Source of the DNA: Chiloscyllium plagiosum | Taxonomy: Eukaryota | Direction: 5' to 3' | DNA length: 64,000 nt | NCBI RefSeq assembly: GCF_004010195.1 | Contig: NC_057716.1 | Location: 9,984,259 to 10,048,258, forward strand | Shown: in pieces, positions 4,420 through 54,030 of the stretch | How the letters are laid out: each line of letters opens with the position of its first letter | Position numbering within the stretch: the stretch's first letter is position 1 | Notes under the pieces: generated by a model | Database searches by the model: none | What the model saw: only the letters and a program-made list of their open reading frames with translations | Told to the model about the DNA's origin: nothing | Made by a program: the position numbers and the translations under genes

Positions 4420-6902
4420 AGGAAGCAGTGGCGTATTTGCATTATTGCCGAACTAGCTCTCTAGACACCCAACTAATGTTCTTGGGTTTGAATTCAGCCA
4501 AGGACAGGGCTGCATTTTGAATTCAATAAAAATCTGGAATTAAAAATCTAATGATGACCATGTTGATAATGACCATTGTTGGTTGTCGTAAAAACCCATC
4601 TAGTTTACTAATGTCTTTTAGTGAACAAAATAGCAATGAATCAAGACAGAATACTAGGCATAGAATATGGCATAGGAAACAATGTCAAACAGCTCTGTTG
4701 ACCCTGCAAGGTCCACCTCACTAACATCTAAGGGCTGGTGCCAAAATTGAAAAGTTGTCTCACAGACTAGTCATACTTGAATAGCTGACACACTGAAACA
4801 CACCTTACAGAATGCCCCAGATGAGACTGTCATCATTCCTTGGCATTCCTACCTGTAGGGCAGATCAGAGGTGGCAGCACGGTGCTTTACCTTGGGAGGA
4901 ACTTGCCTTGGGATTTCTGACTCCAGACCTCAAAGTCTCATGGTTTCATGCCAAACATGGGTATGGAAACCTCAAGACCTCCTGCCGATTACTAGCAACC
5001 CTGTGGCTGATGAATCAGTACTCCCTACATGCAGAACACTGCCTGATGGAAACACAAAAGTGCAGAATGTTCTCTGAGTGTACATCAGAACCACAGCTTA
5101 GATCTGTAGCTGGTGGTCAGGGAACCAACAAGAGGGGAAAAAATGTATCTGACCTCATACTCACCAATCTGCCTGCTGGGGATCCATTTATCCATGACAA
5201 TATCAGTAAGAATGACCACCGCAAAGACCTTGTGGAGACAAAAGTCCGGTCTTCACATTGAGAATACCCTTCCTAATGCTATGTATCATTATCAATGTGA
5301 TAAATGGGATAGACCAAACAGATCCAGCAATTCAAGACTGGTTTCCAGGAGGCTCCGTGGGCCACTGGCAATGGCAGAATTGTTCTTAAACACAATCTGA
5401 TGAAGAGTCATCCAGACTTGAAATATTAGCTTGCTTTCCCTCCATGGATGCTGCATGACTTGCTGTGATCTGCAGCATTTTTTGTTTCCAGTACAATCTG
5501 CAGCCACACGGCTCAGCATGTTTTCTACCCTACCATGACATTAAGCCAGGGGATCAAAAACAGCAACTGCCTGAGAAACTCAGTTGACCTGGCAACCTTT
5601 TCTTGATATCATGGTGAATGAGTAGAATTGGGTTAAGGCTGGTATCTAACAACCTAGTGAAGCTACAACACCATATTACTTGCATGCCAGACCGACTCCA
5701 CAGCCAGCAGATCAGGTCTAAGCTCTGCCGTCTTGCCACATCCAGACATGAATTCTGATGGACAATTAACCAACCTACTGGAGGAGGTGGCTGTACAAAC
5801 ATCCTCAATCTCATTATTAGGCAAAAGATAAAGCTGAAGTATTTGCACCAATTTTCAGCCAGAAGTACCAAGTTGATGATCCATCTTGGCCTCCTCCAGA
5901 GATTCCAAGCATTGTAGATACCAGCCTTCAGCCAATTAGATTCACTGTACGTGATATATGAAGGCAGTAAAAACTGCAAACACTGTGGGCCCTGACAACA
6001 TCCTGGCAATGATGTCATGTGTTGCAGAACTTGATGCTCTCCTAACCAAGCTGTTTCAATACACCTGCAGCACTGGAATCTAGATAACAGTGAGGAAACT
6101 TACCCAGTAAAATGCCTCAACTACTGGAACAGTCCATGTCTAAATATAGCAAGACCTGGACAATATCCTACTTGGCTCCACAAGTGTTAAGTAACATTGG
6201 TGCCACACAAGTGCCAGACAATGAGCATATCCAAAAAGAGTGAATCTAACCATTACCTCTTGACATTACCATCAATGACTTTTCCATTATCAACATCCTG
6301 GAGGTTAACACAGACCAGAACTAGACTAGCCATATAAATACGGAATTACAAGAGCAGGTCAGAAGCTCAGAAATTTGCAGTGAATAACTTATTTCCTGAC
6401 TCCCCAAAGCCTGTCTACCATAAGGCACAAGTCAGATGTTTGATGGAATACTTCGACAAGCATCTGAAGAAACTGAAACAATTTTACAGCATATAGGATA
6501 AAGTAGCCCAGCTTGACTACACCACATTGACATATATTTACTCCCTCCATTACTGACTACAAGATACCAGTAGAAATTCATCTGAGTTACTTAGACAGCA
6601 TCTTCCAAACCCAAGACCAGTATTATCTAGAAGGACAAGGGCATCAGATACACGGGAACACAACCAGCTGTAACGTCTATTCTAAGCCACTCACCATCCT
6701 GACTTAGAAATAAATTATTGGCCCTTCAATGTCTCTGATTAAAAATCCTGGAACTCCCTCACTAACATCATTGTGAGTCTGCCCACAATGGACTGTGATG
6801 GTTCAAGATGACAGGTACTGCCACCTTCAAGGGCAACTACTGATGAGAATTAAATGGCAGCCCAACCAATGATGTCCATGTCCTCATGAGTGAATTAAAA
6901 AT
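4420..6902 (+). mobile_element. Decayed CR1/L2-clade LINE with a tRNA-like/SINE-like 5' head, then APE and RT remnants and a 3' tail
   Basis: A-box-like TGGCGTATTTG (4429-4439) and B-box-like GGTTTGAATTC (~4485-4495). APE motifs appear in the ORF track (PTRGKNVSDLILTNLP, ISKNDH). The 3' tail caagggcaact...atgagtgaattaaaa recurs at 14410-14460 and 19380-19450. Confidence 0.7.
5397..5492 (+). mobile_element. ~95 bp PLE terminal fragment starting at a hammerhead motif, inserted in the LINE
   Basis: CTGATGA(5397-5403)-A-GAGTC-ATCCA-GACTT-GAAA-TATT. ACAATCTG occurs at 5392-5399 and 5493-5500. The body resembles the right arm of the element at 21181-21413. Confidence 0.7.
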
Positions 6903-8164
6903 GTTCTGATCATTACTTTATTTGCTTATTCTTTAACAAAAGCACAATTTCTCTTGCAGGAAAAGCAGGATAAAACCGTTCAAATGTACAAATGTCTAAG
7001 ATTATGAATACAAATCTTGTCAAATTTTACTTAGTGTTTTGTATATATTCATTGAATGTGGAAGTCTATTTAGGATTGATTTGCTCTCGAATTGTAAAGG
7101 CAAGTTTACATTGATCTATTGAGTACTATTTAAGGAATAGTTTATTTCCTTCAAATTTGCCTAAATTCTTTAGCATTTATCATCACAAAAAAACTTCCAA
7201 ATTCTTAACTACCAGCCTTAATCCACAACAAAGGCTTTGCTCAGGATTCCGGTTTTGCAACAACAGTATGTTCTTTTACCTTTTACTATTTTGTTCTTTA
7301 CCCCATCAGCATCAATGGCTGGCTTCCACAAATGCATCATGTGGTCTCATTCTCCAAGTGCCCTACAAACCTTTATTTGTTTTTGGAACTACCTGCCAAA
7401 TAAAGCCACACCAAAGCATACTCCTTAAACTGACTAAAGTAGTAGTGTGGATAGACAAAAATTATAGGTCAATATAGAATTTTCATAAGCTTTATTAATT
7501 TAATTCTGAAGTTTCTCACTGCCATCTTAATTACTTTTTGATTTGATTTCCAACTTTTTTTGTTATACTTTGTCATGCTCTCCTCCTTTCCTTCTGTGTA
7601 TGCTTTCTTTATTCTTCAGCTCATTTCTTTGTTCATCGGTGATATTTTATTATTGGCTACTTTGTTCTTGCTTTAGTGGGATTTTTTTCATGGACTTTGT
7701 TGATCAAGGTTTAAACTAGTTTAATTTTTAACTCATCAATGAATGTTTACAGTTTATTTTCACTATTCTATTCTGATCCAGCTTTGTTCAATTTAATACT
7801 TAAGTCTTTGTCATACTTATGTCCTTCTCAATCATTATCTTAAATGATTGCGTTATGATTGCTATGGTTTAGATTTACTACTGCTCTCTCATTTCTTTTG
7901 TTCATTTCCATTACTGGATGCAGTTATGCCCCCTTACATGCTAGGATTTTATATATTGGGTAACATAGGAATCTTGGTATTGATGTTGAGTTCCATTCCC
8001 TTTTGCTGCCTCTTTACTTTGGAACACACAAAATTTCTTATGCTTATTATACCACAAAATTCATTAATTTCACATGATTATTTACATATTTCTTCCTCCA
8101 TCACCTTTTGTCTATCAGCTGCCTTGGAGTACTGTAGAAAATTGTTGGGGCCAGTTTGTTAGAT

Positions 8165-8322
8165 ATATTCAGGGGGGAATTGGAAAAGGGATCAAGGGGT
8201 ATGAATAGAAAGTTGGAATGGGATACTGAAATTGCACGATCAACCATGATCATAGTAAATGGTTGTGCAGGCTCGAAGGGCTGAATAGCTTACTCCTGCA
8301 ATTTTTTTCTATGTTTCTATGT
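8165..8322 (+). mobile_element. CR1 3'UTR fragment
   Basis: gggatcaaggggtat...ggctcgaagggctgaatagcttactcctgc, ending in a (ttctatgt)n tail. Confidence 0.65.
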
Positions 8323-9366
8323 ACAACCTGCTTAGTATAATTGATATCTGATCTGTTATTTCAATTCATGCCAATTCAGTTTCCAACTATTCATTAGATA
8401 TGTTGCTTTTACCTTCTGCCATGATATTATCTTTATTTAGTACAATTACACCCAAACATTTTCAATTCCTTGTCCTTTCTGATTATGTTAATATCTGTAA
8501 TATTCAGCTGTCAGTCACGCTCTTCATCTGACATTGCCATTATTCCAGCACATTTGTTCTCTTTCTATGGATTATTGCTTCCAAGTCTCCCAAGTTACTT
8601 GGATACTGTACTAGCAATTTAATTCTGCCACAATTATTCATTTTATCAGGCATTTTATGTATCTGGTTTATAAATGCATTGGCTCTCTGGAGTATCACAT
8701 TATCCCTGCTTTCTATCTTGATTTAACCTTTACTCTCATCTTTTATTTCTTTCACCTTCAAACTTATTTGGTTTTTGCCTGGTGCTTTTAGCCAACGTGC
8801 AAACTGAACATCCTACTGACAGCTCTTTTCATCCTTTCTACTAGGAAACTAATTTCACACTTACTCAAGTGGAGCTCATGCGAAGGGTAAAATTGTTTCC
8901 TATCCAGTACAGTGCCAGTATTTCATGAAATGGCCATCTCCTTTCAGTTATAAACATAATCAAACCATCAGTGTAAAAGGAACATCACAGCCATAGTCCA
9001 AATTGCTCACGATATAAAACAATCATGTAAATGAACTGCAGTGTATAATGGTGGATAATAAATTTCCCTTGTGCCATTGAAAGTATTCCGTATATTTATT
9101 TGCAAATAGGATAAAGTATTGGAAATGGGTGAAAGTAGCAATAATAACCATATACATTTTCATTATTGTTACTTCCTTCTGTCCTACTGAAATTGGAAAC
9201 AAATCTAGATACCCTAAGAAGAGTAAAATAACATATTTGCAAAAATGTCACTTTGTAACTTGCATTAAATTAAATGGATTTTCACCTCTACATTGGAAAA
9301 ATTTTAAAAAGTAATTTCTTCATACTGCTTATTTGGGACAATACATTTGCAAGGTGTCAAAACTCT

Positions 9367-9770
9367 ACAGAATGTTCAGAGGAGATTTATCATGATGACA
9401 TAGGGATGTACAAGTTGCCAAAGTGGTGAGATCGGAGAAGTTGGGATTGTTTTCTATGGAGCAAAGCAGATTGAGGGGAGCCATGATAAATGAGGGGTTT
9501 TGACAGTGGAAGTGTGTCAGTAACCAGAGGCCATGGGTTAAAAAAGGCACCAGAGCTGGAGGCAATTTAGAATAAATATCTTCATTTTGAGGGGAGAGTA
9601 TGGTCAGGAGCACACTATCTGAAAGATCGGTAGAATGAGATCTCACTGGAACTTTTAAGAAAGTATTGAACATAAATTTAAACATGACCAATTCAGAAGT
9701 TTATAAGGAAAAAGCTGGGACGTAATTGGGATGTAAGCTGGCATATTGACCTCCTCTGTGCTGAAATGTT
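9367..9770 (+). mobile_element. Old CR1 3' fragment
   Basis: Similar to the VQRRF...EKLGLFS...RLRG region of other CR1 copies in the window. Confidence 0.55.
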
Positions 9771-11290: not shown

Positions 11291-11612
11291 TAAGACAGCT
11301 ACTGTATGCATAACAGGATCACCTTTATGGTATGGAGATACACAATCACGTTTTAGTAACTGGCTAAGTGATCGATCTTGGCCAAAGCAGTGGAAGAATT
11401 CCCAAATGTTCTTTAAATCATTGATCGTGATCCACCTAAACCAGCAGAAGTAGATTAATGTTCTGGAAGCAGTAATTTCAACAACGTAGTACACCACTCA
11501 TCTACATCGGAAAGCCAGCACAGGTTATATCCTAGGTGACCTTGATGCTACAATCTTCTGATGAAGAGGAATGAGTTTTTAAAATCTGAATCAAAACAGT
11601 AACAAACTTATT

Positions 11613-11984
11613 GATGATTTGGAGATGCTGGTGTTGGACTGGGGTGTACAAAGTTAAAAATAACACAACACCAGGTTATAGTCCAACAGGTTTATTTGGA
11701 AACACTAACTTTCGGAGCGTTGCTTTATCATGAGGTGATTGTCAAGGATAGGAGTGTAAGACAGAATTTAAAGCAAAAGTTTACAGTGTGATGTAACTGA
11801 AATTATATATTGAAAAAGACCCGGATTGTTTGTTCAGTCTTAACTTAATAAACTTTTGCTATAAATTCTATGTCTTACAATCTTATTCTTGACAATCACC
11901 TGATGAAGGAGCAAGCGCTCCAAAATCTTGTGCTTCCAAATAAACCTGTTGGACTATAACCTGGTGTTGTGTGATTTTAAACTT
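11613..11984. mobile_element. Fold-back PLE terminal element (family A) with degenerate hammerhead motifs in both arms
   Basis: Arms aagttaaaaataacacaacaccagg... and ...cctggtgttgtgtgattttaaactt. CTGATGA at 11900-11906. AAACTTATT at 11604-11612 and 11979-11987. Same family as 24665-24881. Confidence 0.85.
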
Positions 11985-15040: not shown

Positions 15041-15791
15041 TTTTTGAGAAGAGTTTTAGCTCAGTTTGATGATAAGTATGTAAGTAAGCTTACTGAGTTT
15101 GAAGATTTGTTTTCAGATGTTTCGTCACCATCATCAGTGAGAGTCTCTGGTGAAGGGCTGGTGGTATGTCCCACCTCTCTTTTTATAGGTCTTGATTTCT
15201 GAAAATGCATGAGGTCATTTCTGGCTCTTTTTTCTCAAGGGAAGGTAGATAAGATCTAAATTGATGTGTTTATTGATAGAGTTCTGATTAGAATATCATG
15301 CCTCTAAGAATTCTCATGTGTGTTTTTGTTTCGCCTGCCCTAGGATGTATGTGTCGGACCAGTCAAAGTGGTGGCCTTCTTTGTCTATATGTATAGAAAC
15401 TAGTCATAGTGGGTCGATAGTGGCCACAAAAAGATGTGACCCACTATGACTGGTTTCTATACATAAAGACAAAGAAGGACATTACTTTGATTGGGATAAT
15501 ACATACATCCTAGGACAGGCGAAACAAAGACACACATGAGAATTCTTAAAGGCGTGGCATTTTAACCAGAACTCCAACAATAAACACATTGATTTAGACA
15601 CTATCTACCTTCCCTTGAGAAAAAAGAACCAGGAATGACATCCCCCACCCGAATAAACCAAGACCTATAAATAGAGAGGCGGAACATACCACCCGGCGCT
15701 TCACCAGAGACTGTCGCTGCTAACGTTACCTAGTACGGTGACCAAACATCTGAAAACAAACCTTCAAGCTCAGTGAGCAAACTTACATACC
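15041..15791. mobile_element. Inverted pair of PLE 3' ends (family C) with GIY-YIG C-terminal remnant and hammerhead motifs
   Basis: Arms ~15085-15416 and ~15439-15790 are reverse complements. The right arm reads SIHKDKEGHYFDWDNTYILGQAKQRHT*EFLKAWHFNQNSNNKHIDLD. The minus strand at 15110-15140 reads TCA-CTGATGA-TGGTGAC-GAAAC-ATC-TGA. Confidence 0.85.
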
Positions 15792-16386
15792 TTTTGCCAT
15801 GGAAGTTATGTTGTAGTTATGGCTTTTGTAGCAAGTGCACCTAACATTACTGACAAAAAACGTCTACAAACTAGTGACTGGGGTGACACCAAAAGTGAAC
15901 ATAATTTGTGCAGGCCATGCACGTCCTAATCACAGATTTTCATTTTCTCCAACTTTTAGTTGAGCTTTTCTGTCAAAAATTTGCCATTGACAACTGTGGT
16001 GCCAATATTTTCTGTTTAATTTTGCTTTGAAGGTTTATTGTACCACAGGTTGGATGGAAGAATTGCTCCTTTCCTGCCTCATTCCACATATTTGTATATT
16101 GTTGAAGGCTTTGGCCACTAGGTGGGTCTGTGGAATGCATTTCCAAAGTTTCCTCTTTAACTGAACCCAAAACACCATGATCCAGAATGTAGATGGGAAA
16201 GAGGAAGGGGCTCAGAAATAGACACTTTGGACTTCAAAGAGTGTGGAGACAGAAACAGAAAACAATTGGCAGAGATATTTTGACTTCAGTCAGATAGTTA
16301 AGAGCAGGGAAAAGGAAGAGTAGCATGACTGAGCTGGATTGCTGAGGCAAAACTTTGGCTAAGGATGATATGGTCAACATGTCAAA

Positions 16387-16605
16387 ACTAGGAGAAAGTG
16401 AGGACTGCAGATGCTGGAGATCAGAGTCAAAGAGTGTGGGGCTGGAAAAGCACAGCCGGTCAGGCAGCATTGGAGGAGCAGGAGAATCGACGTTTCAGGC
16501 CTAAGCTCTGGCGTAATTCCTAATGAAGGGCTTAAGCCCGAAACGTCGATTCTCTTGCTCCTCAGATGCTGCCTGACCAGCTGTGCTTTCCCAGCGCCAC
16601 ACTCT
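16387..16605. mobile_element. Fold-back PLE terminal element (family B) with a hammerhead motif
   Basis: Inverted arms around ~16510. ATTC-CTAATGA-A-GGGC-TTAA-GCCC-GAAACGTC-GATT at 16516-16551. A 13 bp TSD, TCAACATGTCAAA, at 16374-16386 and 16606-16618. Confidence 0.85.
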
Positions 16606-17694
16606 TCAACATGTCAAACAATGCAGACAATCCATGCAGGGTAAGGATAAACAATGCAGTACATCCACTCAGAATGTCATTTGTGATGTTGGCTGGGAGT
16701 TGGTTCAGTACTATAGCAGAAACAGAAACATGATTGGAAGGCAAGTGGGATCAAGAGCAGATTTCTTCTCTGAGGAGCATGGTAATTACTACTTACAAGG
16801 AGAGGGAGCATATAAGATTAGACATTTACGAATTCAGCTCACTGGAAAGATGGCGAGGAAAGGCACCCAAGTGATCGGCAGCTTACTGGAACTATGATCA
16901 TTGGTACATAAGTGGGTCACTTAGGTCGATTTCGGAGCATTGTGGGGTGTGTATGAGTAGGTGAAGTAGTTCATAAGCTTCTTAAATTTGGTTAAGAGGA
17001 TGTGGAGGATGTAGAGAAGAGATATTTGAGGAGAGAGTTGATAGTGGAGGCAAGAAGTCAGTGTTTTATTTGATCTCTGTCGGAGTAATAAGCCATTTAG
17101 TCCCTTAAACCTGCTCCAACATTGAATGGGAACATTGCTGACATAAATCACAACATCAGTTTCATCTGTCCATTGCACAACATATCTTGTTTAATTAGGT
17201 GTGGTTCAATCATTATTCAGGTGAGTCTGCATCTTGTGTGCAAATCACTGAATAGGAACCAGCCCAATTTCCTCTGCTGACTCAGCCTCCCTCTAAGAGA
17301 CTTGTGGTGTTGATTTGCACAAGTCTCAAATAGGGAGTAATACTTTAAATTTGGACCAGGGTATTCACAACGTATAGTGGAAAAATTAAAGCACTATCCA
17401 CCAAATGGGTTGTTAATGCTGAGTCCAACAAAGGTTTCAGACCAAAATGAACAAATTTTGTTGAATAAAGTCTCTAAAGAATATGGAAAGGTAGATAAAT
17501 ATAGATGTGTATGTGTCATGTCATTTTTGACACTTGCTTTACCTCATGCAACCTATTCTGGTTATCTAAATCTCCCAGGCTTCCTTCTGGTGACTGTGTT
17601 GTACCCAAAGACTAATATATATTTCCTGGAGTGCCTAAAACTGACTACAATACTCCAAATGTATCTGATTAATACTTTGTACAACATACTTTGT

Positions 17695-19969: not shown

Positions 19970-20020
19970 CTTCAAAAACAGAAAATTAACCAAAAGGATT
20001 AAACATGTTTGGTTCTAAGC

Positions 20021-21068: not shown

Positions 21069-21180
21069 ACTGAAACTCATCAATTGTTAAAGCAACAATA
21101 ATATTTAAACCTGTCCGCTACCATTATAATTTTAAGAGTCATTTTTTGGCAAGACACGTACCTTAACTTGAAAACAAATA

Positions 21181-21413
21181 TAAGCAAAATACTGCAGATG
21201 CTGGAAATCTGAGATAAACACAAAATGGTGGTGAAGCTCAGCAGGTCTAGCAGCATCCATGAAGAGAAAACAAAGGGGTAACGTTTCAAGTTCGATAAGG
21301 TTCTTTATTGTCTGAAGGTGTGTCATATCAGAACTGAAACGTTAACTCTGTTTTTCTCTCTCTATGGATGATGTCAGACCTGCTGAATTTTGTAGCATTG
21401 TGTGTTTGTTTGT
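21181..21413. mobile_element. Fold-back PLE terminal element (family D), older, with a degenerate hammerhead
   Basis: Arms cagcaggtctagcagcatccatgaagaga...taacgtttca and tgaaacgttaac...tctatggatgatgtcagacctgctg. CTGAAGG (21312) ... GAAACGTT (21336-21343). TSD AAAACAAATA at 21171-21180 and 21414-21423. Confidence 0.8.
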
Positions 21414-21785: not shown

Positions 21786-21810
21786 TGTGAGTGAGTGAGT
21801 GAGTGAGTGT

Positions 21811-21855: not shown

Positions 21856-22517
21856 NNNNNNNNNNNNNNNNNNNNNNNNNNNNNNNNNNNNNNNNNNNNN
21901 NNNNNNNNNNNNNNNNNNNNNNNNNNNNNNNNNNNNNNNNNNNNNNNNNNNNNNNNNNNNNNNNNNNNNNNNNNNNNNNNNNNNNNNNNNNNNNNNNNNN
22001 NNNNNNNNNNNNNNNNNNNNNNNNNNNNNNNNNNNNNNNNNNNNNNNNNNNNNNNNNNNNNNNNNNNNNNNNNNNNNNNNNNNNNNNNNNNNNNNNNNNN
22101 NNNNNNNNNNNNNNNNNNNNNNNNNNNNNNNNNNNNNNNNNNNNNNNNNNNNNNNNNNNNNNNNNNNNNNNNNNNNNNNNNNNNNNNNNNNNNNNNNNNN
22201 NNNNNNNNNNNNNNNNNNNNNNNNNNNNNNNNNNNNNNNNNNNNNNNNNNNNNNNNNNNNNNNNNNNNNNNNNNNNNNNNNNNNNNNNNNNNNNNNNNNN
22301 NNNNNNNNNNNNNNNNNNNNNNNNNNNNNNNNNNNNNNNNNNNNNNNNNNNNNNNNNNNNNNNNNNNNNNNNNNNNNNNNNNNNNNNNNNNNNNNNNNNN
22401 NNNNNNNNNNNNNNNNNNNNNNNNNNNNNNNNNNNNNNNNNNNNNNNNNNNNNNNNNNNNNNNNNNNNNNNNNNNNNNNNNNNNNNNNNNNNNNNNNNNN
22501 NNNNNNNNNNNNNNNNN
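21856..22517. other. Assembly gap (662 N)
   Basis: Run of n. Confidence 1.
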
Positions 22518-22626
22518 CCCGAAACGTCGAATCTCCTGTTCCCTGGATGCTGCCTGACCTGCTGTGCTGTTCCAGCAATAAAGTTTCAACTTTGATCTCC
22601 AGCATCTGCAGACCTCACTTTCTCCT
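22518..22626 (+). mobile_element. PLE family B terminus emerging from the gap, with the 3' half of a hammerhead
   Basis: CCC-GAAACGTC-GAAT followed by ...gatctccagcatctgcagacctcactttctcc, the reverse complement of the start at 16391. Confidence 0.85.
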
Positions 22627-24503: not shown

Positions 24504-24717
24504 CTGTAGAGGAAAAAAATAAGCTTTAAGTAACTCAAGGTAGAAGCTAATGATAAACTCAAGGGTCAACAATGGAGGGTTATATAGCAACACTGATTCT
24601 AACATAATTCAACTAAGTCAAAAATCAAAATTCTTGGCTCATTTATAGATATGCATAAAACAATAGTTAAAAATCACACAACACCAGGTTATAGTCCAAC
24701 AGGTTTAATTGGAAGCA

Positions 24718-24752
24718 CACTAGCTTTCGGAGCGTCGCTCCTTCATCAGGTG
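24718..24752 (-). ncRNA. Minimal type I hammerhead ribozyme motif (sense to the DGK pre-mRNA)
   Basis: Minus strand: CAC-CTGATGA-A-GGAGC-GAC-GCTCC-GAAA-GC-TA/GTG. Core intact, 5 bp stem II, 3 bp stem I, palindromic AGCU in place of stem III. Confidence 0.7.
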
Positions 24753-24755
24753 ATT

Positions 24756-24790
24756 CACCTGATGAAGGAGCGATGCTCCGAAAGCTAGTG
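24756..24790 (+). ncRNA. Minimal type I hammerhead ribozyme motif
   Basis: CAC-CTGATGA(24759-24765)-A-GGAGC-GAT-GCTCC-GAAA(24780-24783)-GC-TA/GTG; predicted cleavage after A24787. Confidence 0.7.
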
Positions 24791-25279
24791 TGCTTCCAAT
24801 TAAACCTGTTGGACTATAACCTGGTGTTGTGTGATTTTTAACTTTGTACACCCCAGTCCAACACCGGCATCTCCGAATCATAAAACAATAAGTAGCTTTC
24901 TTCAATATTTTATCAATAGTATTATATTCTTAAAGCCAAATTCAAGGAATAAAATTACATGAAGCACTTGGTGCATAAGGAGCTCATCCTGTCTCTGGAC
25001 ATCCCTGGGTCATCATTCTGAATATTTAATCTGGTAATGATTGTTGCTGCACTTCCCACAATCTTGCGCCTCCCCAATGAATGCTCCCATCTGGAACTTA
25101 ATTCACTCATGTACCGGTTGTGGGTAATAAATCTGCCATGATCACATCCATTACCATTAGAAACATAGAAATTCTATGGCACAGAAACTGGCCAATTGGA
25201 CCATCAAGTCTGCACAACCATTTAAAGAGCATTCCATTGAGACCCACCATATCCTCATAACCTTGAATGCTTTTTTTTT

Positions 25280-29045: not shown

Positions 29046-30394
29046 TGAATAACCAGAGACTTTTATTTTCGTTTCATTGCCCAGCTTTATATAGTCCCTC
29101 TTCTTCTTCTTTGTAAATTCCATCATGCTAAGCAACAATCTCTTGAAAGGCTGCAAATTGGATAACATGCCCCATGACTTTTGAAAATGTTCACTTACAC
29201 GTAGATACATAAGCGAGATTCAGTTCTTTGATATTGCTCCCTCACCAAGGAGAAACAACGCTTTAAAAATTAGAGGAACATTGAACCTGTGTATTATTAG
29301 TCAAAATATGATGAATTGGAGAAATGATAGATCTTATTTTCTAAGCATGCTGGAAGCCATTTTTGAGGACTGTGGATTTAAAAAAGTTGCATCCTGAGAA
29401 ATGACAACAAGATAACAGATGTCTTCTCTTTTTGAAGGTTCATTATGAGCAGACATTGTGTGGCCTCCACTCAGTTATTACGGACCAAGAGTCCATAGCA
29501 TAAATCCACCTCAAATTTGGCAGAACGCTGTGGCAGGTATTTGACTCTCCTCTAGCAGTATTATATTCATCTGAGATGGAGTTAAATTAGCATTGGGTGC
29601 CGAGTAACAGTGTATTGTTTTGAGTACTGACGTCTCTCAGTGTGATGAGGAGGGCTAATGTGGATATTTGTGAGACAAAGGGCACAATGTTAATGGAGTT
29701 GATCATAAACAGGCTTTGGAAGCTAAGAATTTAATGAAAGTGAGACTCTCTGACGAGATGTTAGCTGAACCAAACTAAGCTAGCGTCAACATTTAGAACT
29801 TAAAACATGAGAAATGTTTAGCAGATGGGCAACTGAGAATTTGCAAGAGTGTGGAAACTTTGTGCAGAGAAGCAAGGGAATTTTTTAAAACTTTAATTTA
29901 TTGGTTTCAAATATTTATTAAATATATAAAACAAGATTAGATGGATGTGGCAGCACAGGAAGTGTTCCACATCTGCAGCATGTGGGAGGCTTGTGGACAG
30001 CAGCGTCATTCCAGCACCCACGTCTGCCACAGTGTCTGAAACTCAAGGAATTTCAGCTTGAGAGATTGAGGCATTTCAAAGCATCATGGAAAGTGTGAGT
30101 TACCAGGACATTTAACACAGGAGTCAGCCACCCCTCATGTAAAGTTAGATAAGGACTGGACCGTATGACTGACTCAGACAGGTAAGGGGAATTAGATAAA
30201 TGGTGCAGGAGCCTGAGCCCTTGTCAACACATACGAGTGTGCAATGTCAGAAACTGAAACACCAGTTACCTTCCTTCGGTTACTACAGCCATAGCACCCA
30301 TTTTACCAAAGTGCAACAATAAAAGTCACCACAAAATAAAAGTCACCACAAAATAAACATCCTGAAGTTTCTTGTCAGAATAGAATTTGGATAT

Positions 30395-31080
30395 TTCTGA
30401 AAGACAGACACATTGTCAAAGCTTCTCATCTTGTATTCATCAGGATAAAATACAACAATACCAATTTCAAATGATCACAGGTTATATTACAAGAGGAAGG
30501 AGAGCTGATGGTTGCCAAATAACCTCTCATTAGCCATGACATTGTTATCAAGAAAGGAATGGTGAACTATAGGCTCTTCAAGCTCCTGAATAATTCAAAA
30601 ACGGTGCAAAGTTTGACCAAATTCTTTTTAGTTACAGAGAATAGGTCCTTACATGGGAGTGCATGTGACTTCTAGCATGCATTAATGAGCCACATACAAA
30701 TTCAACTGATATTTTAAATGGTATCTGGAGTAGTTATTAGCATACTCCGTGTTATTCAGCAAGTGCTGTCATTCATTGAACAATATTTAATACTAGACAT
30801 TTTGCAAGGTTGGGCTGGTTAGGTATAATCTGTATTCTGCCTAATAAGAACAATTGAAAGCAGTTGCAATCAGCTAGTCGCAGTGATGCATAGCCTACGT
30901 ACCTGGCATCACACCAGCACAAATTCATGCAACGTTGTTCAATTGTGTGTTAGATATAATGTCTTGTTATCAAAAGGTGTCACTCCTGTAGATAATGCAT
31001 CGCAGTTACAGCATGAAATAGTTTTCAATGGACACAGCCCACAGATTAGATTAAATCTATGCAGTTATGTCTCATCGTGA
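30395..31080 (-). mobile_element. Decayed PLE 3' region (family E) with a GIY-YIG remnant and a degenerate hammerhead; a partial inverted terminus lies at ~31375-31520
   Basis: The minus strand reads CWCDARYVGYASLRLA (~30873-30920). CTGATGA-ATACAAGAT-GAGA-AGCT-TT-GACA at 30414-30443 (minus). Confidence 0.65.
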
Positions 31081-40009: not shown

Positions 40010-40956
40010 CTTCATAGGAGATAGAGAAATTGACTAAGATTATTAAGGCTGAATAAGACAAATTAGAGAATTAGCTCATCTGTATGAATCAAATGGGGCA
40101 TCTAGAACATACCAAGAGATTCAAAATCACAGAGGTAAATTACACTGTGTGATATTATGAAAGCAAAGGCAGCATTACTTGCATCACCACAAAATAATTT
40201 TTGGTCCAACTACCTTTTCAAAGGTCGTTCACCACCACTTTCTGTGGCATTCAATTTAATTTTAAAACCGTAAGTTGCTCTAAGCTCCAAGACAGTTTGT
40301 CACCTATCACTACACATGGGTGGTGTAACAGCCCTCAGGGGCAGGCATCACAATCTCAAACTTAGCATTCACCCTCTTGAGCAAGCCTTTGAAAATGATA
40401 GCAGTTTCATTTCTGATGGGACTGATCTCATCTGGTGGCATTCATTTATTTCTTTGTGACATTCTTTTGGAACTTTCATGCCTGAATCTCTTGGTCAGTG
40501 ATGAAGTGAGAGTGTGCACTGCCGACCCCATCAGAGACAACAGGCTTCCATTTTTATGCTGGAGCTTTAGGACCTTCCAATCCAGCTTCAGCTTGTACCC
40601 AGCAATGAGGCAGGATAAGGGGCCCAGTGCTGGGCACAATTCCAAAGACACCATGACCTCTTTCATGTCAAGAGCTGAAGACATAATCCTCGAACTCTGC
40701 CTTTAGTGCAGTGAACTTGCCATTTCAAAACAAACCCATATCTGTTGCAAACGCTGTGCTCATCCAACCCATCAACCCAACACTGCTTGCTCCTTTTCCA
40801 GCATGGCTCATTTTATTCTTCATGCCTGACAATATTCACCCTACTCCTGAAATTGTTCACCACTTCCAGACCCTGCTCAGCACCATCCCACAATCTGGTG
40901 GGGAAGGTGAAGAGAAGGAGAGTAGACTGAGCAGTGTTGGAAATGCCTGTAGGCAT

Positions 40957-41010
40957 GGTGGTGATGATGGTGATGATGATGATGGTGATGATGATGACGG
41001 CGATGATGAT
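40957..41010. repeat. Imperfect (GAT/GGT)n trinucleotide repeat
   Basis: ggtggtgatgatggtgatgatgatgatggtgatgatgatgacggcgatgatgat. Confidence 0.95.
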
Positions 41011-42063
41011 CTGTGCCACGGGCATCACGCAAGGAGGGGCGGTGTTGAGAGGGAACAGCAGAGCTGTGGAGCGCATTAAGGGCTGAGAGTTTAAGAGGTG
41101 TGAGCAATGCCAGGAGGTGGGGAGCATGGATTCAGAAGGGTTTTACTAGTGTCTGAGTTCAGGATAACAGAGCAGCATTTGGCAGTGGATCAGTGTCAGG
41201 TGGAGGGTAAGCAATGTTTGGGGTGGGAGGGGGTTGTTGGTCAACAATGTCAGGAAGGAGAGAGGACAAACATTGTTATTGTGAACAGTGTGCAGGGATA
41301 CTAAATGTCCTTTGATGACATTTCTTCTAATCTAAAGGATTGCATTTCTAACAACTGGGCTTTATCCCTGTGAGAGACAGTTATCAATAAATCAGCATGA
41401 AAGACTGGGTGGACAGCCCAAACTCACTGAATGGCAGGTCACCAGTGACTTGGCAGCAAGGGCTTCCAAAGAATTATTTTGATTTCCTGTACCAAAACAG
41501 TGCTGTGAATCTGTGATTCAGGGTTCCAAACTAAATCAGCTCCCACGAGCTTCCATTTCCTCAGGTGAAAACGGGATCAGGAACCAAGGTCAGTTTTATT
41601 TTGCTGACCGTTTGGGTAAATCTTTGGAGAATTAGCAAAGTGGGAGTATACTTGTAATTGGATGTGCTCTCTTGTGCCTTGAAAACCACATTAGATCAAT
41701 AAATGTTATAGGGTTCATGGTTGAAGCCTGTTCAAAAAATATTTCGCTGGCACACATATTAAAATGTGCTTAAATTACAATCACTTTAATTGCACAGCTA
41801 ATTTTGCAAATGTTAGACTGTTACAAATAAATCTTGTATAACCTGTGAAAAATTAACATTCAGAGATTGTGATTATCAGGGCTTGAGGTTTGCTATTGGA
41901 GAGCTTGCTTACAACAGCTAAAGTATTCATTCCAGAGGATTGTAATGTATGCTTTGAGGAAAATCCTAACACATTAATGAATATCCCACTTTCAGAATCA
42001 CAGTATTCAGAAGTTTAAAACACATCTGCATGTTCTGCAAATGTTCAGTGAAATTGCACTTAC

Positions 42064-44371: not shown

Positions 44372-45475
44372 TCTGGATCAGTGGTGCTGGAAGAGCACAG
44401 CAATTCAGGCAGCATCCGAGGACAGGCAAAATCGACGTTTCGGGCAAAAGCCCTTCATCAGGAATAAAGGCAGAGAGCCTGAAGCGTGGAGAGATAAGCT
44501 AGGGGAGGGGGGGGGGGGGGAGAGAGTAGCATAGAGTACAATAGGTCAGTGGGGAAGGAGATGAACGTGATAGGTCAGGGAGGAGAGGGTGGAGTGGATA
44601 GGTGGAAAAGAAGCTGGGCAGGTCGGACAAGTCCGGACAGGTCAGGGGACCGAGTTTCTGGAGGTTAGAAGCTAGGATGAGGTGGGGGAACGGGAAATGA
44701 GGAAACTGTTGAAATCCACATTGATGCCCTGGGGTTGAAGTGTTCCCAGTGGCTCAACATTTCAACTCCCCCTCCCACTCTGCCGAGGATATGGAGGTGC
44801 TGGGCCTCCTCCACCACCGCTCCCTCACCACCAGACGCCTGGAGGAAGAACGCCTCATCTTCCGCCTCGGAACACTTCAACCCCAGGGCATCAATGTGGA
44901 TTTCAACAGTTTCCTCATTTCCCCTTCCCCACCTCACCCTCGTTCCAAACTTCCAGCTCAGCACTGTCCCCATGACTTGTCCGGACTTGTCCTACCTGCA
45001 TATCTCCTTTTCCACCTATCCACTCCACCCTCTCCTCCCTGACCTATCACCTTCATCTCCTTCCCCACCTACCTATTGTACTCTATGCTACTCTCTCCCC
45101 ACCCCCACCCTCCTCGAAACGTCGATTTTGCCTGTCCTCGGATGCTGCCTAAATTGCTGTGCTCTCATCTTTAACCACGTGGGAAGGGAAATTGCGGTCT
45201 CTAAAGAAGGAGGCCATCTGGTGTGTTCTATGAACTGCTCCTCCTGGGAGCAGATATGGCGGAGGCGGAGGAGTTGGGAATACGGGATGGCATTTTTGCA
45301 AGAGGTAGGGTGGGAAGAGGTGTAATCCAGGTAGCTGTGGGAGTCGGTGGGTTTGTAGAAAATGTCAGTGTCAAGTCGGTCGTCACAGATGGAGATGGAG
45401 AGGTCCAGGAAGGGGAGGGAGGTGTCAGAGATGGTCCAGGTAAATTTAAGGTCAGGGTGGAATGTGTTGGTGAAA
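44372..45475. mobile_element. Rearranged young Penelope-like element (family B): inverted GIY-YIG/3' termini plus an RT fragment, nested in a CR1
   Basis: ORF track: PLE RT C-terminal region FTNTFHPDLKFTWTISDTSLPFLDLSI...YKPTDSHSYLDYTSSHP (minus) and GIY-YIG tail PVAQHFNSPSHS...LEEERLIFRLGTLQPQGIN (plus). Inversion point near 44740. Confidence 0.9.
44430..44465 (-). ncRNA. Minimal type I hammerhead ribozyme motif with intact core (sense to the DGK pre-mRNA)
   Basis: Minus strand: ATTC-CTGATGA-A-GGGC-TTTT-GCCC-GAAAC-GTC/GATT, with palindromic ACGU in place of stem III and a GUC cleavage triplet. Confidence 0.72.
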
Positions 45476-46516
45476 AATACCCTATCAAAAATCCAGCATT
45501 TCGTATGTTTCAATCAAGTCATGTTTTAGTCTTCGAAACTTCAACCAATATAAAGCCTAGCCTGTGCAATCTTTCCTTGTAACTGTCTCATTTCAGATAT
45601 GAGTCTGAAAAACCTCTGAACTGTCTCCAACACATTTACAACATTCTTCCAATAAAGTGACTGATACTGTGCACAATTCTCCAGATGCAGTCTCAATAGT
45701 ACACTGTATAACCGAAAGATAACTTCTCTACTTTTGTATTCAACTTCCCTTGCAGTAAATTCTAACATTTGATTAGCTTTTCTAATTACTTGATGTTCGT
45801 GCACGCTAACCTTTCACGATGCATGTATGAGGACAGTCTTTGCATCTCAGAACTCTGCAATCTCTCAACCCTTTGTCAAAAGAAAGCTGCTTTGGGATCT
45901 TTTATGCCCATTTTAGAGGACAACAGTGTTTTAGTTTAATGATTGATCTGCAAGATGGCTTCTCTTAAATTACAGCACTCCTTTGGTTTTCTCCTGTGCT
46001 ATGTTGAAATAAGGTATCTGTCACTTCAATAATGTGGAAGGTGGAAAACAAACTAGCTCATCTTTGCAAGTCTCCTGAACTGGTCTGAAAGGAGCTGCTG
46101 GTGTGTGAAGCAATCATGACTTTATCCCAATAATGTTGGGTTGCTACTTTCACTCTGCCAAATGACGTAACTCAAAACCAGCTTAGTTGAGCAGACACAG
46201 ATTCCAATCAACTTTCCTACCAAACTGCAGGAAGTGAATTATATCAAATCTGGAATTTAGAGTTCACTAAATAGACCTGATACTTAGCAGAATGTTTCCC
46301 GTGCATGTTGGTGTCATCTCCCTCCACTCTGAGTTCTTACTCCTAATTGAAAGTCTCCACCAAAATCCTGGAAGCTGTTTTGCATTGGAATAGTTGCCCC
46401 TGATCAGTTCAGTGAGATGAGAGATTGAATAAATTGGGCTTAGATTCTCCAGAGGTTAGAAGAATGAGAGACATTCTCATTGAAATGTGCACAGTTCTGA
46501 AGGACCTTGATTGAGT

Positions 46517-48269: not shown

Positions 48270-49170
48270 TCTGACTCTGCCTTGGGCACAGTTGACAATA
48301 GCAATCTCCTCAAATATCTTTCGTCTACTGTCTAGTGTGACTGCACTCATTTGGTTCCTCTCCTATCTTTCAATTTGTGGCCACAGAATCCTCTCCAATG
48401 ATTTCAGTTCTCTTTCCATTCTCGTACCTATACCTCTTGATTTCACAAAAAATCTATCCTTATCCCCCTCCTACTCTTAACTACTGGCTACCCCTGTGAA
48501 ACATCATTTGAAAATCCATTATGTGTGACAGCAGCACCCAATTCTACCTCACCCCCAGCTGGAAGATCTTTGACTGCTTCTCCGACACCCAGTACTATGA
48601 GCAGAAATTTCCTCCAAATAAAAGTTATGACCAAAGCCATTGTTTTCCATTCCTGCTACTAAATGTGTTCATTTGCCATCAACTCCACTCTTCCATCATA
48701 CAATTCACAACTTGGATGTCCAATATGATGGCATATTCTGACTGCATACCCATCCCATCACTAAAACACCTGTTCCCACCTTGCCAAAATCACCAACTCT
48801 GCCTCAGTTACAGTTGATTAATTAATGCTTTCCTGTCTCTCTGAGCTGAACTCTCATATCCCATCCACCATCCACACATGCTCATTCAGAATTCTGCTTC
48901 CGGCATCCTAACCCACTCCACATCCTGTACACCCATCAACACTGGCTTTTGTTTGAACAATGCCATGGTTTTATAATTTTAATCGTGGATTTAAACTTCT
49001 TTTATAATCTTCCCTTATCTCTGTAACCTACATAAATTCTACAAGATATCTCCATTTCTTCAATTCACTATTGACTGCCATGCCTCCAGCTGCCTTGGAG
49101 CCCAAGCTCTGGATTTCCCTTGTAAACCTTTCCACTTCTCTTTGCTGCATTGGGATGCTCCTCAAGCCAA
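48270..49170 (+). mobile_element. Old L2-like LINE RT/3' fragment
   Basis: Remnants of ALIWFLSYLS and DSTQFYL, followed by a C-rich L2-like 3' region. Confidence 0.5.
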
Positions 49171-50057
49171 GTTACTCTTGCTGATTTGATCTTTCATTTC
49201 TTGCAGCTCCTTCAATAAAATGCACATACATTGTTGAATGTCTGATTGAATAACATGACAAAGCTCCACAGGAAGGAAAACAGTTTGTTGAAATGCAGTA
49301 TTTTCAAGATCATATTCAAAAAAATGCTGAAAAGGTTAAGTAATTTCAGGAAAGATCAATATTTTAGCATGGGGTGAAAATTCCACATCCCGTGAAAATG
49401 TAATTGTTCGTATCAGTAGGAATTTAGAGTGCAACCGATGGGGAACAATTCGGCAGGTTCCACCCAGCTTTAGATCCAGCTTGCTAAGCAGTTAACACAA
49501 AGTAAGTTTAGAGCAAAATTCAGTAGACTTGCACAAAACCATTTAATTATCTGTGCTATTATTCCACAATTCTTTTTGTCTTACCATGTAATGAATGCTT
49601 GCTCAACACTTAACTTGCACAAAAACCATTATCAAATGATTTCTGCATTATACCTCTTCTCTCTCCCTCTCTCAATATCACCGCATCCTTGAAATTACTA
49701 TTTTCAACAACATGGTAATGATTATATTGGCAAGAACAGACAAAATTGCCTTATGTTAAGATAGGCTTAGCAGACATGTGAACAATAATGCTCAGAGTAA
49801 TCTCAAGTTAGGATTTCATCTGATTCAAATTGGTTAAATTTGCAGATTGTCAATATTGAATATGTAAGTAACTTTCCTGCTAGCTAAATTGGCCTAATCT
49901 CAAAATACAATAATGAGGAGTCGGATTTATATGCCACAACGTATCAAAATAGGTACAGGAACACATGCAGACATTCAGAGAGAATGGCTAGGAACACTAA
50001 AATATAAGTGCTTCCATTAGCTGTGGATGCTTTACGGGTAAAATATATGAGGATTTA

Positions 50058-50219
<162 letters not shown>

Positions 50220-50992
50220 TCAGTGAATGTTCACTTTTTTCTTATTCCTTACCTACATATTTAACTATTATCCTTATCCATATCATTCATGCCATTGACC
50301 TTGTGTCAGCCCTTTCAAAGAGCATTCCAGTTACTTCCACTCTCCTATTTCCCTATTGTATTTTCCCCTTCACGGGTTTATCCAACTGCTTTTCAAAAAT
50401 ACAACTATTTCCATCACCCTACCAGGTTATGCATTACAAATATGGTTCCTTTCATCATTATCACCTCGAATATGTGCCGTTGAGTTTCCTTCTCTGAAGA
50501 GCATGCCTCTAGCTTCTGTATCTAACTGCATAACTTAATCTTTCATCTTTAGAGCCATTCCAGGAAATCCCTTCTCTCATCCATCCAGCTTCTTTACATG
50601 GCTTCTTCAGATAGGGTATTCAAAACTGGACCCAATGTTCAGGCTGGGTCTGACTAGCATTTTATATAAGTAGTGCGGAAGTCTTCAGAATATGTATGCC
50701 ATTCTCAAATTGCTACTCAGCATTGGAGATGCTTAGAGTAACAACTAGGTAGGAGGCCGGATCTCTTCCTGAAAAATTGAGATGGATCAAGTTTATGTTT
50801 GGGTAAGAGTGATACTGTGTCAGAGTTCCTGGGAATAATAATCCAAGCGGGGGCAACTAAACCTCTACAGACACAATTCAGATCCCAGCATAGCAACTGT
50901 ATTAATTACTACATCTGGAATAAAATGCTAACCTCATTAAAAACGGTCAGGAACCAGATGAGTATTTATGAAAATGCCCTTCAGGGGGCATT

Positions 50993-52799
50993 TTCATTCT
51001 GCAATTTAAAAAAAATAGCTGAAGGCACTGAATACAGCAAAAGCTGGCAACGTCCCAGCTGCAGTACTCACCTCAGACACAGCTGCACCCTTAGCCATGC
51101 TCCTTCAGTACAGCTACAATACTGAGAATAACCTGACAACAGGGGGAACTGGTGTACTAAAAGCAGGATAAATCCAACTTTACTAATTACTGCCCCATTG
51201 GTTTAACCTGAATGATCAGCTAAGAGATGAACAGTTTCACTGACATAACTATCATGCAGTTCTGTTGATGTGATCACCGCTACATTGGGAAGATAGGACG
51301 CCAACTTGCAGAATGTTTCAGAGAACATCTTTGGGACACAAACAAACCTACCTCCCTGTGGCCGAACACTTCAACTCCCCCTCCCACTCCGCTAAGGACA
51401 TGCAGGGAAGGAAATCTATCAAGTTTACCAGGTCTGCCTATGTAACTCCAGAAACACAGTGAAGTGAATGATCCTTTATTGCCTTATGAAATGACCTAGC
51501 GATCCACTCAGTTGTATCAAGCTACTCCAGAAAAGTAAAATATGAACAAAACTGGACAGACCACCTGGCATTGACCCAGGTGTCAGAAACATCAAGGCAT
51601 ACCCTGCATTCTCGTCTCTGCAAAGTCTTCATCACAAACATCTGGGGATTTGGCTGAGTCCTGAAAAACATCTTTGATAGACTGGCCTGTTGCAGGAGGT
51701 GAGAAAACTAGCAACAGCGGGCAAAAATATCTACCTGACCCTGTCCTCGTAAATCTAGTTGCTGTCGATGCATCGGTCTGTGACAGTATTGGCAAGGGTG
51801 ACTACCACATTATCCTTGTTGAGATGAAGTTATTTGTTCATTTTGAGGAGACTTCTCACAGGGGTAACTCTCACTCAAATGGGAAACTCTCACTCAAATG
51901 GGACAGATTCAGCAACAGATCTGGCAACTCAAAATGGTGCATTTGAGAGGTGCTGAAGGCGTCAGCAGCAGAACCGTATTCAACCACAATCTGCATATCC
52001 CTCACAGCACCATCAAGCTAAGGTGATAATGAGCTTCTGGGATTGCAGGGCTGTAGCAATAATATGGTAGGAGCAACAGTGATATATCTTAAACAAGGGT
52101 GATAATGTGGTGAAGCAGCCACACAAAATTATATACATTTTAAACAGCAGCGCAGCCAGCTAGACTGGGCAAAACTAACACATAACAAATGAATCAGATC
52201 AAAAGTTCTGCAACCTTGCCACATCCAGTCATGAACAGTGATGAGCAATTGAGAAGGAAACTCCAAAGTATTCCAAATATTCACTGGAGGAGCCCAGTCT
52301 GTGAAAATGACAATGCGAAGGGTATTTATAACTTCTCATACAGTCCCCACTGTCAGTCTTCAGAAAATTCAATTCATTCTGCAATTTAAAAAAATAGCTG
52401 AAGGCACTGGATACAGCAAAAGCTGGCAATGTCCCAGCTGTAGTACTGATCTCAAACACAGCCGCACCCTTAGCCATGCACCTTCAGTATAGCTACAATA
52501 CTGAGAAAAACCTGACAACATGGAAACTTATCCAAGAGTGCCTGGTGTACTAAAAGCAGGATAAATCTAACTTTACTAATTACTGCCCCATCGGTTTAAC
52601 CTGAATGATCAGCTAAGAGATGAACAGTTTCACTGACAGAACTATCATGCAGTTCTGTTGATGTGATCACCGCTACATTGGGAAGATAGGATGTCAACTT
52701 GCAGAATGTTTCAGAGAACATCTCTAGGACACAAACAAACCTACCGCCCTGTGGCCGAACACTTCAACTCCCCCTCCCACTCCGCTAAGGACATGCAGG
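50993..52799. repeat. ~420 bp direct duplication (50993-51406 vs 52373-52799) spanning a LINE/PLE junction
   Basis: Both copies run from ttcattctgcaatttaaaaaaa to gctaaggacatgcagg, with high identity and one ~13 bp indel. Confidence 0.9.
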
Positions 52800-54030
52800 T
52801 CCTGGGCCTTCTCCACCATCAAATTCTAGCTACCTGACACCTGGAGGAAGAACAGCTCATCTTCTGCCTTGGGACTCTCCAACCACATGAGATCATTGTT
52901 GATTTCACCAGTTTCCTGATCTCCCCTCCCCCCACCCAATCCCAGATCCAACCCTCCAACTCAGCACTGCCCTCTTGAACTTTCTTCCCACCTCTCCGCG
53001 CCACCCTCCACTCTGACCTATCACCATCACCCCCCACCTTCATCTATCTATCGCATTCCCAGCCACCTCCACACCCCTGCCCCAGCCACCTCAGGCACCC
53101 CTCCATATTCCTGATGAAGGGTTTATGCTCAAAATGTCGACTCTCCTGTTACTTGGATGCTGCCTGACTGGCTGTGCTTTTCCAGCACCACACTTTATAC
53201 CTCTGATCTCCAACATCTGCAGTCCTAGCACTTACTCAGCAACAACCTTTATTGTCAAACTCAGTTTGGGCTCTGCCCGGGCTACCTGGCTCCAGAATTC
53301 GAACCTTGGGCCAAAGTTGGACAAAAGAACTAAACTCCAGTGGTGGGGTGAGAACAAGTGACCTTGACATCAGTGTTTGATGAAGGAGGACATTGTAGAG
53401 TATAGACCAAAAGATACATGAGCTGAGTTAGGCCAATCGGTTCATCAAGTCTGCGCCACAGGGGTCTAGCAAAATTGGAGTCGAGTATCAGGAAAAGAAC
53501 TCTCCACTGGTCGGGGTCATACCCAGCACAAAAAGGAAACTGGCTATGGTTGCTGAAAGTCAGTCGTCACTGCTCCAGGACATCTCTGCATGAGTTCCTC
53601 AGGGTAGTATCCTAAACCCAAACCATCTTCAATGGTTTCATCAATGACTATCTCTACATCACAATGTCAGAAGTGGAGATGCTTGCTGGTTGTGTAGCGT
53701 ATTTCAAACAACTTCAGACTCTTCAGATACCGAGGCAGTGCACTCCCACAGGCAGCAATGTGAGGACAACATTCAGGCTCGGGCTGACAAGTGGGAACTA
53801 ACACTCCCACCACACAGCCTAAATGGACTAGGCATTGTGGCAATATAAACAGGTCAGAAACTGCGAATTCTGAGGCGAGTTACTTACTGCATGACTGTGC
53901 AAAGCCTTCTCATCATCTACAAGGCACAAGTCAGAAGTGTTATAGAATATTCTGCACTTGTCTGGATGACTGCAGTTCCAAGAACACACTTCAACCATCC
54001 ACAACAAAGCTTGATTAGCAACCCAGCCAC
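51405..54030 (+). mobile_element. Second long copy of the CR1/L2-clade LINE family of 4420-6902, interrupted by a PLE
   Basis: Shares ctgcaaagtc...aacatctgggga with 4705-4735. APE remnant DPVLVNL...DSIGKGDYHIILVE and RT remnant VPQGSIL. Confidence 0.7.
52648..53228 (+). mobile_element. PLE family B 3' end (GIY-YIG remnant, terminus with a CpG-decayed hammerhead)
   Basis: YIGK.G.QLAECFREHL...PVAEHFNSPSHSAKDMQVLG, then ATTC-CTGATGA(53111)-AGGGTTTATGCTC-AAAATGTC. Confidence 0.85.

Follow-up and report, generated by a model that had tools for sequence, protein, structure and literature searches.

Penelope-Like Element Fold-Backs with Minimal Hammerhead Motifs in Chiloscyllium plagiosum: Clustered Arm Ends and a Probable Origin from a Capped Leader RNA

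Introduction

Inverted copies are a known feature of Penelope-like elements (PLEs). Arkhipova (2013, PMC3846280) and Craig et al. (2021, PMC8557442) described endonuclease-positive (EN+) PLE units with head-to-head inverted pseudo-long terminal repeats (pLTRs), a tail of 30–40 bp at one end, a target-site duplication (TSD) near 10 bp and heavy 5' truncation. Cervera and de la Pena (2014, PMC4209133) described the minimal hammerheads of metazoan PLEs, which have a type I core, an extra base before stem II, a palindrome at 15.2–16.2 and many families per genome. The repeats that we analysed in a stretch of 64,000 nucleotides from Chiloscyllium plagiosum (the window; G000:C7:9984259-10048258 in a 3.56-Gb assembly) share both sets of features. 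The fold-back layout in this window is the already published PLE insertion pattern, and it is very abundant here. Dual minimal hammerhead ribozymes (min-HHRs) lying 100–700 bp apart on opposite strands have also been reported (PMC4209133); the cores studied here are often less than 30 nt apart, most of the window copies are decayed, and they are known to us as predicted motifs.

A preliminary description of the window, made from its letters, had recognized five sequence families, and repeat comparison of the window pieces bore this out: they sort into families A to E, all of which are dispersed across the genome. Our data support the view that the units are ends of PLEs carrying minimal type I hammerheads, inserted as TSD-bounded fold-backs. 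The positions of the arm ends suggested that each fold-back probably arises afresh when the protein of an autonomous PLE carries out an insertion. Both target strands would then prime on an uncleaved leader RNA with a cap, and the two complementary DNAs (cDNAs) would be joined head to head.

Results

Abundance and Arm Ends

Exact-core patterns matched the genome 15,860 times for family A, 17,874 times for B and 440 times for D, while the reversed-pattern controls each gave 0. For families C and E, 40 candidates were scored in each case, yielding 41 and 40 matches, respectively, with an identity of about 75–90%; both families are too old for end mapping. Family A has 2,207 sites with head-to-head core pairs at most 30 nt apart and family B has 2,245, with controls at 0. 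The loci sampled were taken from the listed matches in genome order (90 of family A, 70 of B and 65 of D), together with 20 hand-picked fold-back sites each for A and B that include recurring junctions. Positions in the elements are counted from the C of CUGAUGA as 0, and family A ends were mapped on references with 100 nt upstream. Primary arms were selected for an intact core, so that starts within it stay hidden, and 16/105 family B arms adjoin assembly gaps (loci L061-L090 and L211-L250), which suggests that long copies were collapsed in this assembly. For both reasons long copies are under-counted in what follows.

The 3' ends of the arms are bimodal, with two sites about 35 nt apart, near +85 and +122 in family A, +92 and +127 in B, and +75 and +110 in D. 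One short and one long outer end were combined in 79/83 fold-backs (47/50 in A and 32/33 in B), and single arms terminate at either site. A TSD of at least 10 bp was found in 33/50 units of A and 12/33 of B.

The 5' starts are also clustered. Among 137 family A arms, 50 start at -10 to 0, 19 at -94 to -11, 42 are longer and 26 start in or after the core (p = 7e-32). The 105 family B arms are distributed in a similar manner, with 41 at -9 to 0, 19 at -94 to -10, 13 longer, 16 beside gaps and 16 later (p = 2e-26). In both families the pile stands about twenty-fold above the 85 upstream positions, and this sharp clustering agrees with the earlier expectation that the units are more than products of random truncation. 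In family D, from which L362 and L374 were set aside as false short calls by eye, the TATA-like box lies at -47 to -50. Short arms of this family are few and begin at -10 to -23, several of them at -17/-18.

The ribozyme cut site was rejected as the main 5' end, as only 3/137 family A arms start at +28 to +31 and 0/105 family B arms at +28. The cut-site pattern matched 242 genome sites, and among 100 listed about two thirds were point mutants and about one third true breaks, as judged by eye. Copying of the type used by long interspersed elements (LINEs), starting from a poly(A) end, was rejected because none of 220 family A arm motifs finishes with a run of A at that point.

TATA Box, Extra G and Poly(A) Site

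A TATA box is found at -36 to -40 in 40/98 family A cores, namely those that keep upstream sequence, and this is about 30 nt before -8. In arms of family A that break at -8, the preceding base is G in 19/22, where the native base is C. Genome-wide, 2,949 family A sites have a base other than C at this place, and the first 100 listed, when counted by hand, had 75 G, 15 T and 10 A. As the G may derive from the partner arm, rows in which the arm is joined to host DNA (judged by eye) were counted separately, and 13 of these 26 have G (p = 0.005 against 25%). In full-length L1 insertions, a copied cap is recognized by an extra G, according to the published text on those insertions (PMC11702581). 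Taken together, a capped start is well supported in family A, suggestive in family D and uncertain in family B. The start site and the cap are inferred from the genomic copies.

RNA reads were placed on the single 5' pLTR of one family A copy, L129, a reference that does not form a hairpin. The poly(A) single-cell RNA run X19 gave 3,204 reads, which are mostly 90–95% alike and perhaps come from another species. Loose poly(T) ends on 499 and 407 of these reads (906/3204) map to +60 and +57, respectively, in element sense. ATTAAA or AATAAA is present near +40 in 80/98 family A cores, and the DNA past the poly(A) site is not A-rich. These data show that family A holds a working poly(A) site. Since many copies contribute to the reads, and host transcripts ending in fossil arms may be their source, the data speak for the site and not for an active element; the signal also means that host transcripts could be terminated by such copies. 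Run X20 gave 0 reads on this pLTR, and two contig runs, X2 and X3, indicated presence only. The depth of the poly(A) reads did not drop over the cut site, and cleaved pieces would escape such a library.

Hammerhead Motifs

The preliminary description had listed some 15 hammerhead-like motifs in the window. Fifteen of the listed positions hold a core or its remnant, and the sixteenth, in the partial arm at 22518, was also seen; most of them are decayed. Only two of the listed cores, 24749 and 24759, fit a strict minimal type I descriptor. One further, unlisted match is AT-rich and of the kind that shuffling also yields (0–2 matches in 30 shuffled windows). The core at 44461 has kept its core letters and failed the test for a 3-bp stem I, and the remaining window cores are decayed. 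The Rfam scan of the window gave no hammerhead family among 12 weak matches up to E 5.

Stem II was said to vary between families and yet to stay paired, with stem III replaced by the palindrome AGCU or ACGU, and both statements hold. Stems I and II differ among families A, B, C and D and remain paired; as the copies of A, B and D were selected by stem II, only the change between families counts as evidence. Copies of A, B, C and D in the sampled loci fit the full descriptor (CUGANGA and GAAA boxes, stems I and II, palindromic stem III and UH), and none of 12 old family E copies did. In several old family E copies (loci L397-L407) a TATA-like word lies about 50 nt before the core.

The best preserved motif is at 24756–24790 on the plus strand, with stem I CAC/GUG, stem II GGAGC/GCUCC and the palindrome AGCU. 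From its letters the cut is predicted after 24787, and a mirror copy lies on the minus strand at 24749. An ATTAAA signal follows at 24799–24819 on the plus strand, together with positions +57 and +60 that match the poly(A) joints of L129.

Link to Penelope-Like Elements

L129 has the order pLTR, open reading frame (ORF), pLTR. Its ORF, which is broken, begins at the ATG that ends the tail and contains DKG and reverse transcriptase (RT) motifs. The protein matched Pfam RVT_1 weakly (E 0.0044, below the cut-off), and its Atlas neighbours at 0.96 are eukaryotic RT/DUF8422 clusters. A cysteine-rich stretch, compared with the CX2-5CxxC feature of the Neptune/Nematis RT-endonuclease linker, is present ahead of a deletion, and the endonuclease region is missing. 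In the scan that included this protein, Pfam gave nothing for 3/4 proteins, and the PDB sequence search gave 0 matches. EN+ PLEs have a C-terminal GIY-YIG endonuclease with a CCHH motif. Endonuclease-like remnants were read by eye in families B (YIGET) and D, and for these fragments Pfam gave 0 families in 4/4. The link to a coding region was seen for families A, B and D only and not for C or E; an RT of the DKG type was shown in family A, through L129, and not for C, D or E. Family D presumably has a Poseidon-like look.

Copies in the Window

The preliminary description had reported four TSD-bounded fold-back units of about 220 bp without coding sequence. All four units were confirmed, with TSDs of 9 bp (11613), 13 bp (16387), 10 bp (21181) and 12 bp (24665), and 0/300 random position pairs gave more than 8 bp in a slightly narrower search window. 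The common length was not: three of the units have 218–233 bp and the unit at 11613 has 373 bp.

Family A is represented at 11613 and 24665. The young unit of 218 bp at 24665–24882 (arm identity 97–99%) has its short arm on the minus strand (-6 to +89) and its long arm on the plus strand (-4 to +122), with a TSD of 11–12 bp at 24654 and 24879. The larger unit at 11611–11984, on both strands, has a TSD of 9 bp at 11604 and 11979. Its long arm is at 11611–11841 on the minus strand (-105 to +124) and its short arm at 11849–11984 on the plus strand (-51 to +84), so that both arms extend upstream of the inferred start.

Family B is found at 16387, 22518, 44461/45116 and 53111. The fold-back at 16389–16608 is about 219 bp long, with the long arm on the minus strand (+7 to +127), the short arm on the plus strand (-4 to +87) and a TSD of 13 bp at 16374 and 16606. 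An arm with its tail lies at 22518–22625 on the plus strand and has lost its 5' side to an assembly gap ending at 22517. A complex copy at 44372–45513, on both strands, has a short-ended minus arm with the core at 44461 and a partial arm at 45115; a second inversion (44504–45113) lies inside it and is followed by an RT-side coding remnant on the minus strand (45088–45513). The 5'-truncated copy at 52600–53233 on the plus strand has an endonuclease coding remnant (by eye), the decayed core at 53111 and a tail. A direct duplication with 91% identity (51000–51406 against 52380–52799) takes in the beginning of the remnant of family B coding sequence. In family B the tail closes with a stretch of pyrimidines (window 16389–16400 on the minus strand; L083, L214 and L244). 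In some subfamilies this stretch is followed by AG, like a splice acceptor, and a few copies continue into common downstream sequence; a leader intron of the kind present in Drosophila Penelope is conceivable.

Family C is present at 5397 and 21181. The first is an old and decayed single arm at 5392–5500 on the plus strand, whose possible 8-bp TSD overlaps the core at 5397. The second is an old fold-back of 233 bp at 21181–21413 (arm identity 71%), with the long arm on the minus strand, the short arm on the plus strand and a TSD of 10 bp at 21171 and 21414. Family D is present at 15137/15717 as a fold-back of about 715 bp (15076–15790, both strands), with decayed cores at 15137 (minus) and 15717 (plus), a TATA box in the plus arm and C-terminal endonuclease coding remnants in both arms, as read by eye; a TSD was looked for at this unit and none was found. 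Family E is represented by an old single arm at 30340–30470 on the minus strand, with its decayed core at 30443.

Outside these copies, open frames surround a short (GAT)n-like run at 40329–41079, which is possibly a host exon. At loci L035, L064, L096 and L386, the ends of one family adjoin the ends of another, as if PLE ends were favoured targets.

Discussion

We propose that the pLTR promoter gives a capped RNA, whose start in families A and B lies 4–10 nt ahead of the hammerhead core. The PLE protein would nick and extend both target strands, and the RT would start inside the RNA at two sites bounding the tail, as seen for another PLE in vitro; this would give the 3' ends at two sites about 35 nt apart, one of each per fold-back, that were found here. 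As these sites lie only about 90–130 nt from the RNA 5' end, each cDNA would run off at the cap, often gaining a C, which would be seen as the extra G. Judging from the junction letters, the cDNA ends may then be joined with the help of microhomology, by trimming or by the addition of a few bases, before being filled in. The outcome would be a short arm and a long arm, head to head, within a 10–15-bp TSD. Single stubs would result when one strand alone is extended, and long arms when either the RNA itself or a template jump extends past the start on its upstream side. The hammerhead would be carried along uncleaved, and the hairpin would be a dead-end product. Each unit may be made from one RNA template or from two: the arms of some units share private changes and a 2-nt marker differs in 8/35, and gene conversion or slippage could blur both.

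Several observations weigh against this proposal. In fold-backs, the G can be derived from the partner arm; in the unit at 11613, both long arms carry G at this position, and the count may be raised by an older subfamily in which G is native. Family B has no clear TATA box and a weak G excess (23 G, 19 A and 58 C in 100 rows counted by hand), with C native in some of its subfamilies. The X19 reads on the L129 pLTR have no place where many molecules begin. Among the core-bearing arms of family D, 49/68 were scored long and several more are long by eye, which leaves few short copies. The patterns used for counting the start site and the cut site are unequal in strictness. Arms within a unit are closer to each other than arms of different units (distance 0.078 against 0.100 in A, and 0.102 against 0.154 in B), and this also fits a snap-back of the cDNA or gene conversion. 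Lastly, two family A units, L264 and L265 (G000:C1:40554742 and 41028751), have an unusual centre in common, with opposite polarity and different TSDs.

The closeness of the two arms could be understood if a single cDNA, primed at the outer site, ran off, folded and copied itself, after which the endonuclease would cut the new arm at the inner tail site. This explanation is near the self-priming idea of Arkhipova (2013, PMC3846280) and the endonuclease-resolution idea of Craig et al. (2021, PMC8557442). It would always give one long and one short arm, and it is favoured by palindromic centres in some units and by private changes common to both arms in L074, L107, L110, L255 and L269. However, the 2-nt subfamily marker is discordant in those 8/35 family A units (17 expected at random; p = 0.001), so that, unless the indel recurs, arms in some units seem to derive from different templates. 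There are also junctions (L169/L170, for example) that keep the full start and the G on both arms with bases added between them, which a stemless fold cannot yield. Moreover, single arms end at either site, and both strands were extended from the same start sites in the in vitro work (PMC11167929). We therefore regard a snap-back origin as unlikely. The 5' pile itself may not need a capped start if the RT stalls just past the hammerhead fold or if the RNA is processed there. The pile adjoins stem I in families A and B, family B has little G excess, and no start was seen in RNA, all of which fits stalling or processing. Nevertheless, in family A the G excess is at exactly TATA+30, in family D the short starts have moved along with the TATA box, to about -17, as judged by eye from 5 primary arms and 3 partners, and the ribozyme cut site is not a hot spot. 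We give stalling or processing only a slim chance of being the right explanation.

It had been supposed that the hairpins are mobile elements in their own right, with a layout like that of retrozymes or viroids. In such a case a master fold-back would be copied into RNA, its two hammerheads would process the transcript, and the PLE protein would put it back into the genome. There are thousands of units of similar length, four junctions are common to 10/47 units, and L264 and L265 have the same unusual centre. A copied hairpin RNA would, however, retain its junction and polarity, and the sampled two-core units have 41 distinct junctions in 47, with 46/50 distinct among the listed family A junctions counted by hand. 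The long arm is on opposite sides in 2/4 recurring junctions and in L264/L265. There is no clade of short arms: the distances in 39 units of family A are 0.103 (short-short), 0.100 (short-long) and 0.099 (long-long), and 21 units of B are similar. With the hammerheads on opposite strands, one transcript would have just one, paired to its own complement. The sampled units showed no common junction with diagnostic changes of the kind expected from a master copy, as in short interspersed elements or miniature inverted-repeat transposable elements. The idea was thus not borne out, in view also of the short and long pairing in 79/83, and we consider a self-propagating hairpin very improbable. One-off insertion had been expected to leave breakpoints that differ in every copy; this largely proved to be the case, except that the breakpoints are clustered and not scattered. 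L276 (G000:C1:10199825 and 10201063) comprises a pair of family B fold-backs, separated by 1.2 kb, that share their junction and a 9-bp TSD; this pair, the only one alike in both respects, is a local duplication. At L145 (G000:C1:17711312-17711696), two direct family A cores lie 355 bp apart and the repeat takes in flanking DNA; this retrozyme-like layout is probably a tandem local duplication. Head-to-tail units with complete hammerheads, as in retrozymes that lack LTRs (non-LTR retrozymes), were not found among the sampled A and B units, which are head-to-head.

Retroviral minus-strand strong-stop DNA is a short cDNA that starts near the RNA 5' end; it is primed by transfer RNA and needs RNase H. 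In the units studied here, priming would be on the target. A bolder possibility, which we hold tentatively and with some doubt, is that the pLTR corresponds to U3-R-U5 and that the stubs and fold-backs are strong-stop cDNAs that failed to jump. This rests on the order of the parts: a TATA box, a capped start close to the front of the hammerhead, a poly(A) site some 66–69 nt past that start, and the tail, where the RT would begin. In the putative jump, the target-primed strong-stop cDNA would move via the R repeat onto a transcript's 3' end and copy the ORF, which would regenerate pLTRs and partial tandems and would require neither an antisense template nor circles made by the ribozyme. In Drosophila, Penelope has a TATA-less internal promoter, and its pLTRs were argued not to be made by reverse transcription (Schostak et al. 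2008, PMC2377424); as far as the published account goes, these findings speak against generalising the U3-R-U5 reading.

Our literature search, which covered mainly freely available main texts, yielded no paper that states the capped-leader model, and earlier data on 5' ends may lie outside this coverage. The cap-like G of the copies, the poly(A) site in the pLTR and the pairing of short and long arms make an open question of PLE replication testable. A capped sense leader, a pLTR poly(A) site and strict short and long pairing yield specific predictions for the existing in vitro PLE system.

That system is Poseidon of Anolis carolinensis (PAc). Frangieh et al. (2024, PMC11167929) reported that it has two internal start sites bounding the tail, that both strands are nicked and extended, and that uncleaved RNA is the main template, in agreement with what we suggest for C. 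plagiosum. The PAc hammerhead and tail overlap the ORF start, whereas the family A tail ends at the ATG; the main text of that paper leaves inverted units unexplained and insertion 5' ends unmapped. Twin priming of L1, as outlined in PMC11702581, likewise involves priming at both target ends, an inverted product, a retained TSD and microhomology at the inner joint. It inverts without duplicating, whereas here the first 85–95 nt are present in both arms. Non-LTR retrozymes (Cervera and de la Pena 2020, PMC7229834; Li 2026, bioRxiv 10.64898/2026.07.22.740005) are also derived from PLEs, non-coding, of similar size and equipped with a type I hammerhead. They are described as head-to-tail tandems that give circular RNA, while the units here are head-to-head with one core per strand and no sign of self-propagation. 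Arkhipova (2013, PMC3846280) attributed the head-to-head arrangement to self-priming with an antisense template; the extra G found here points instead to a capped sense RNA. Compared with the EN+ PLE units described in that article and by Craig et al. (2021, PMC8557442), those of C. plagiosum occur in thousands without a coding part, and both of their arms stop at one clustered point.

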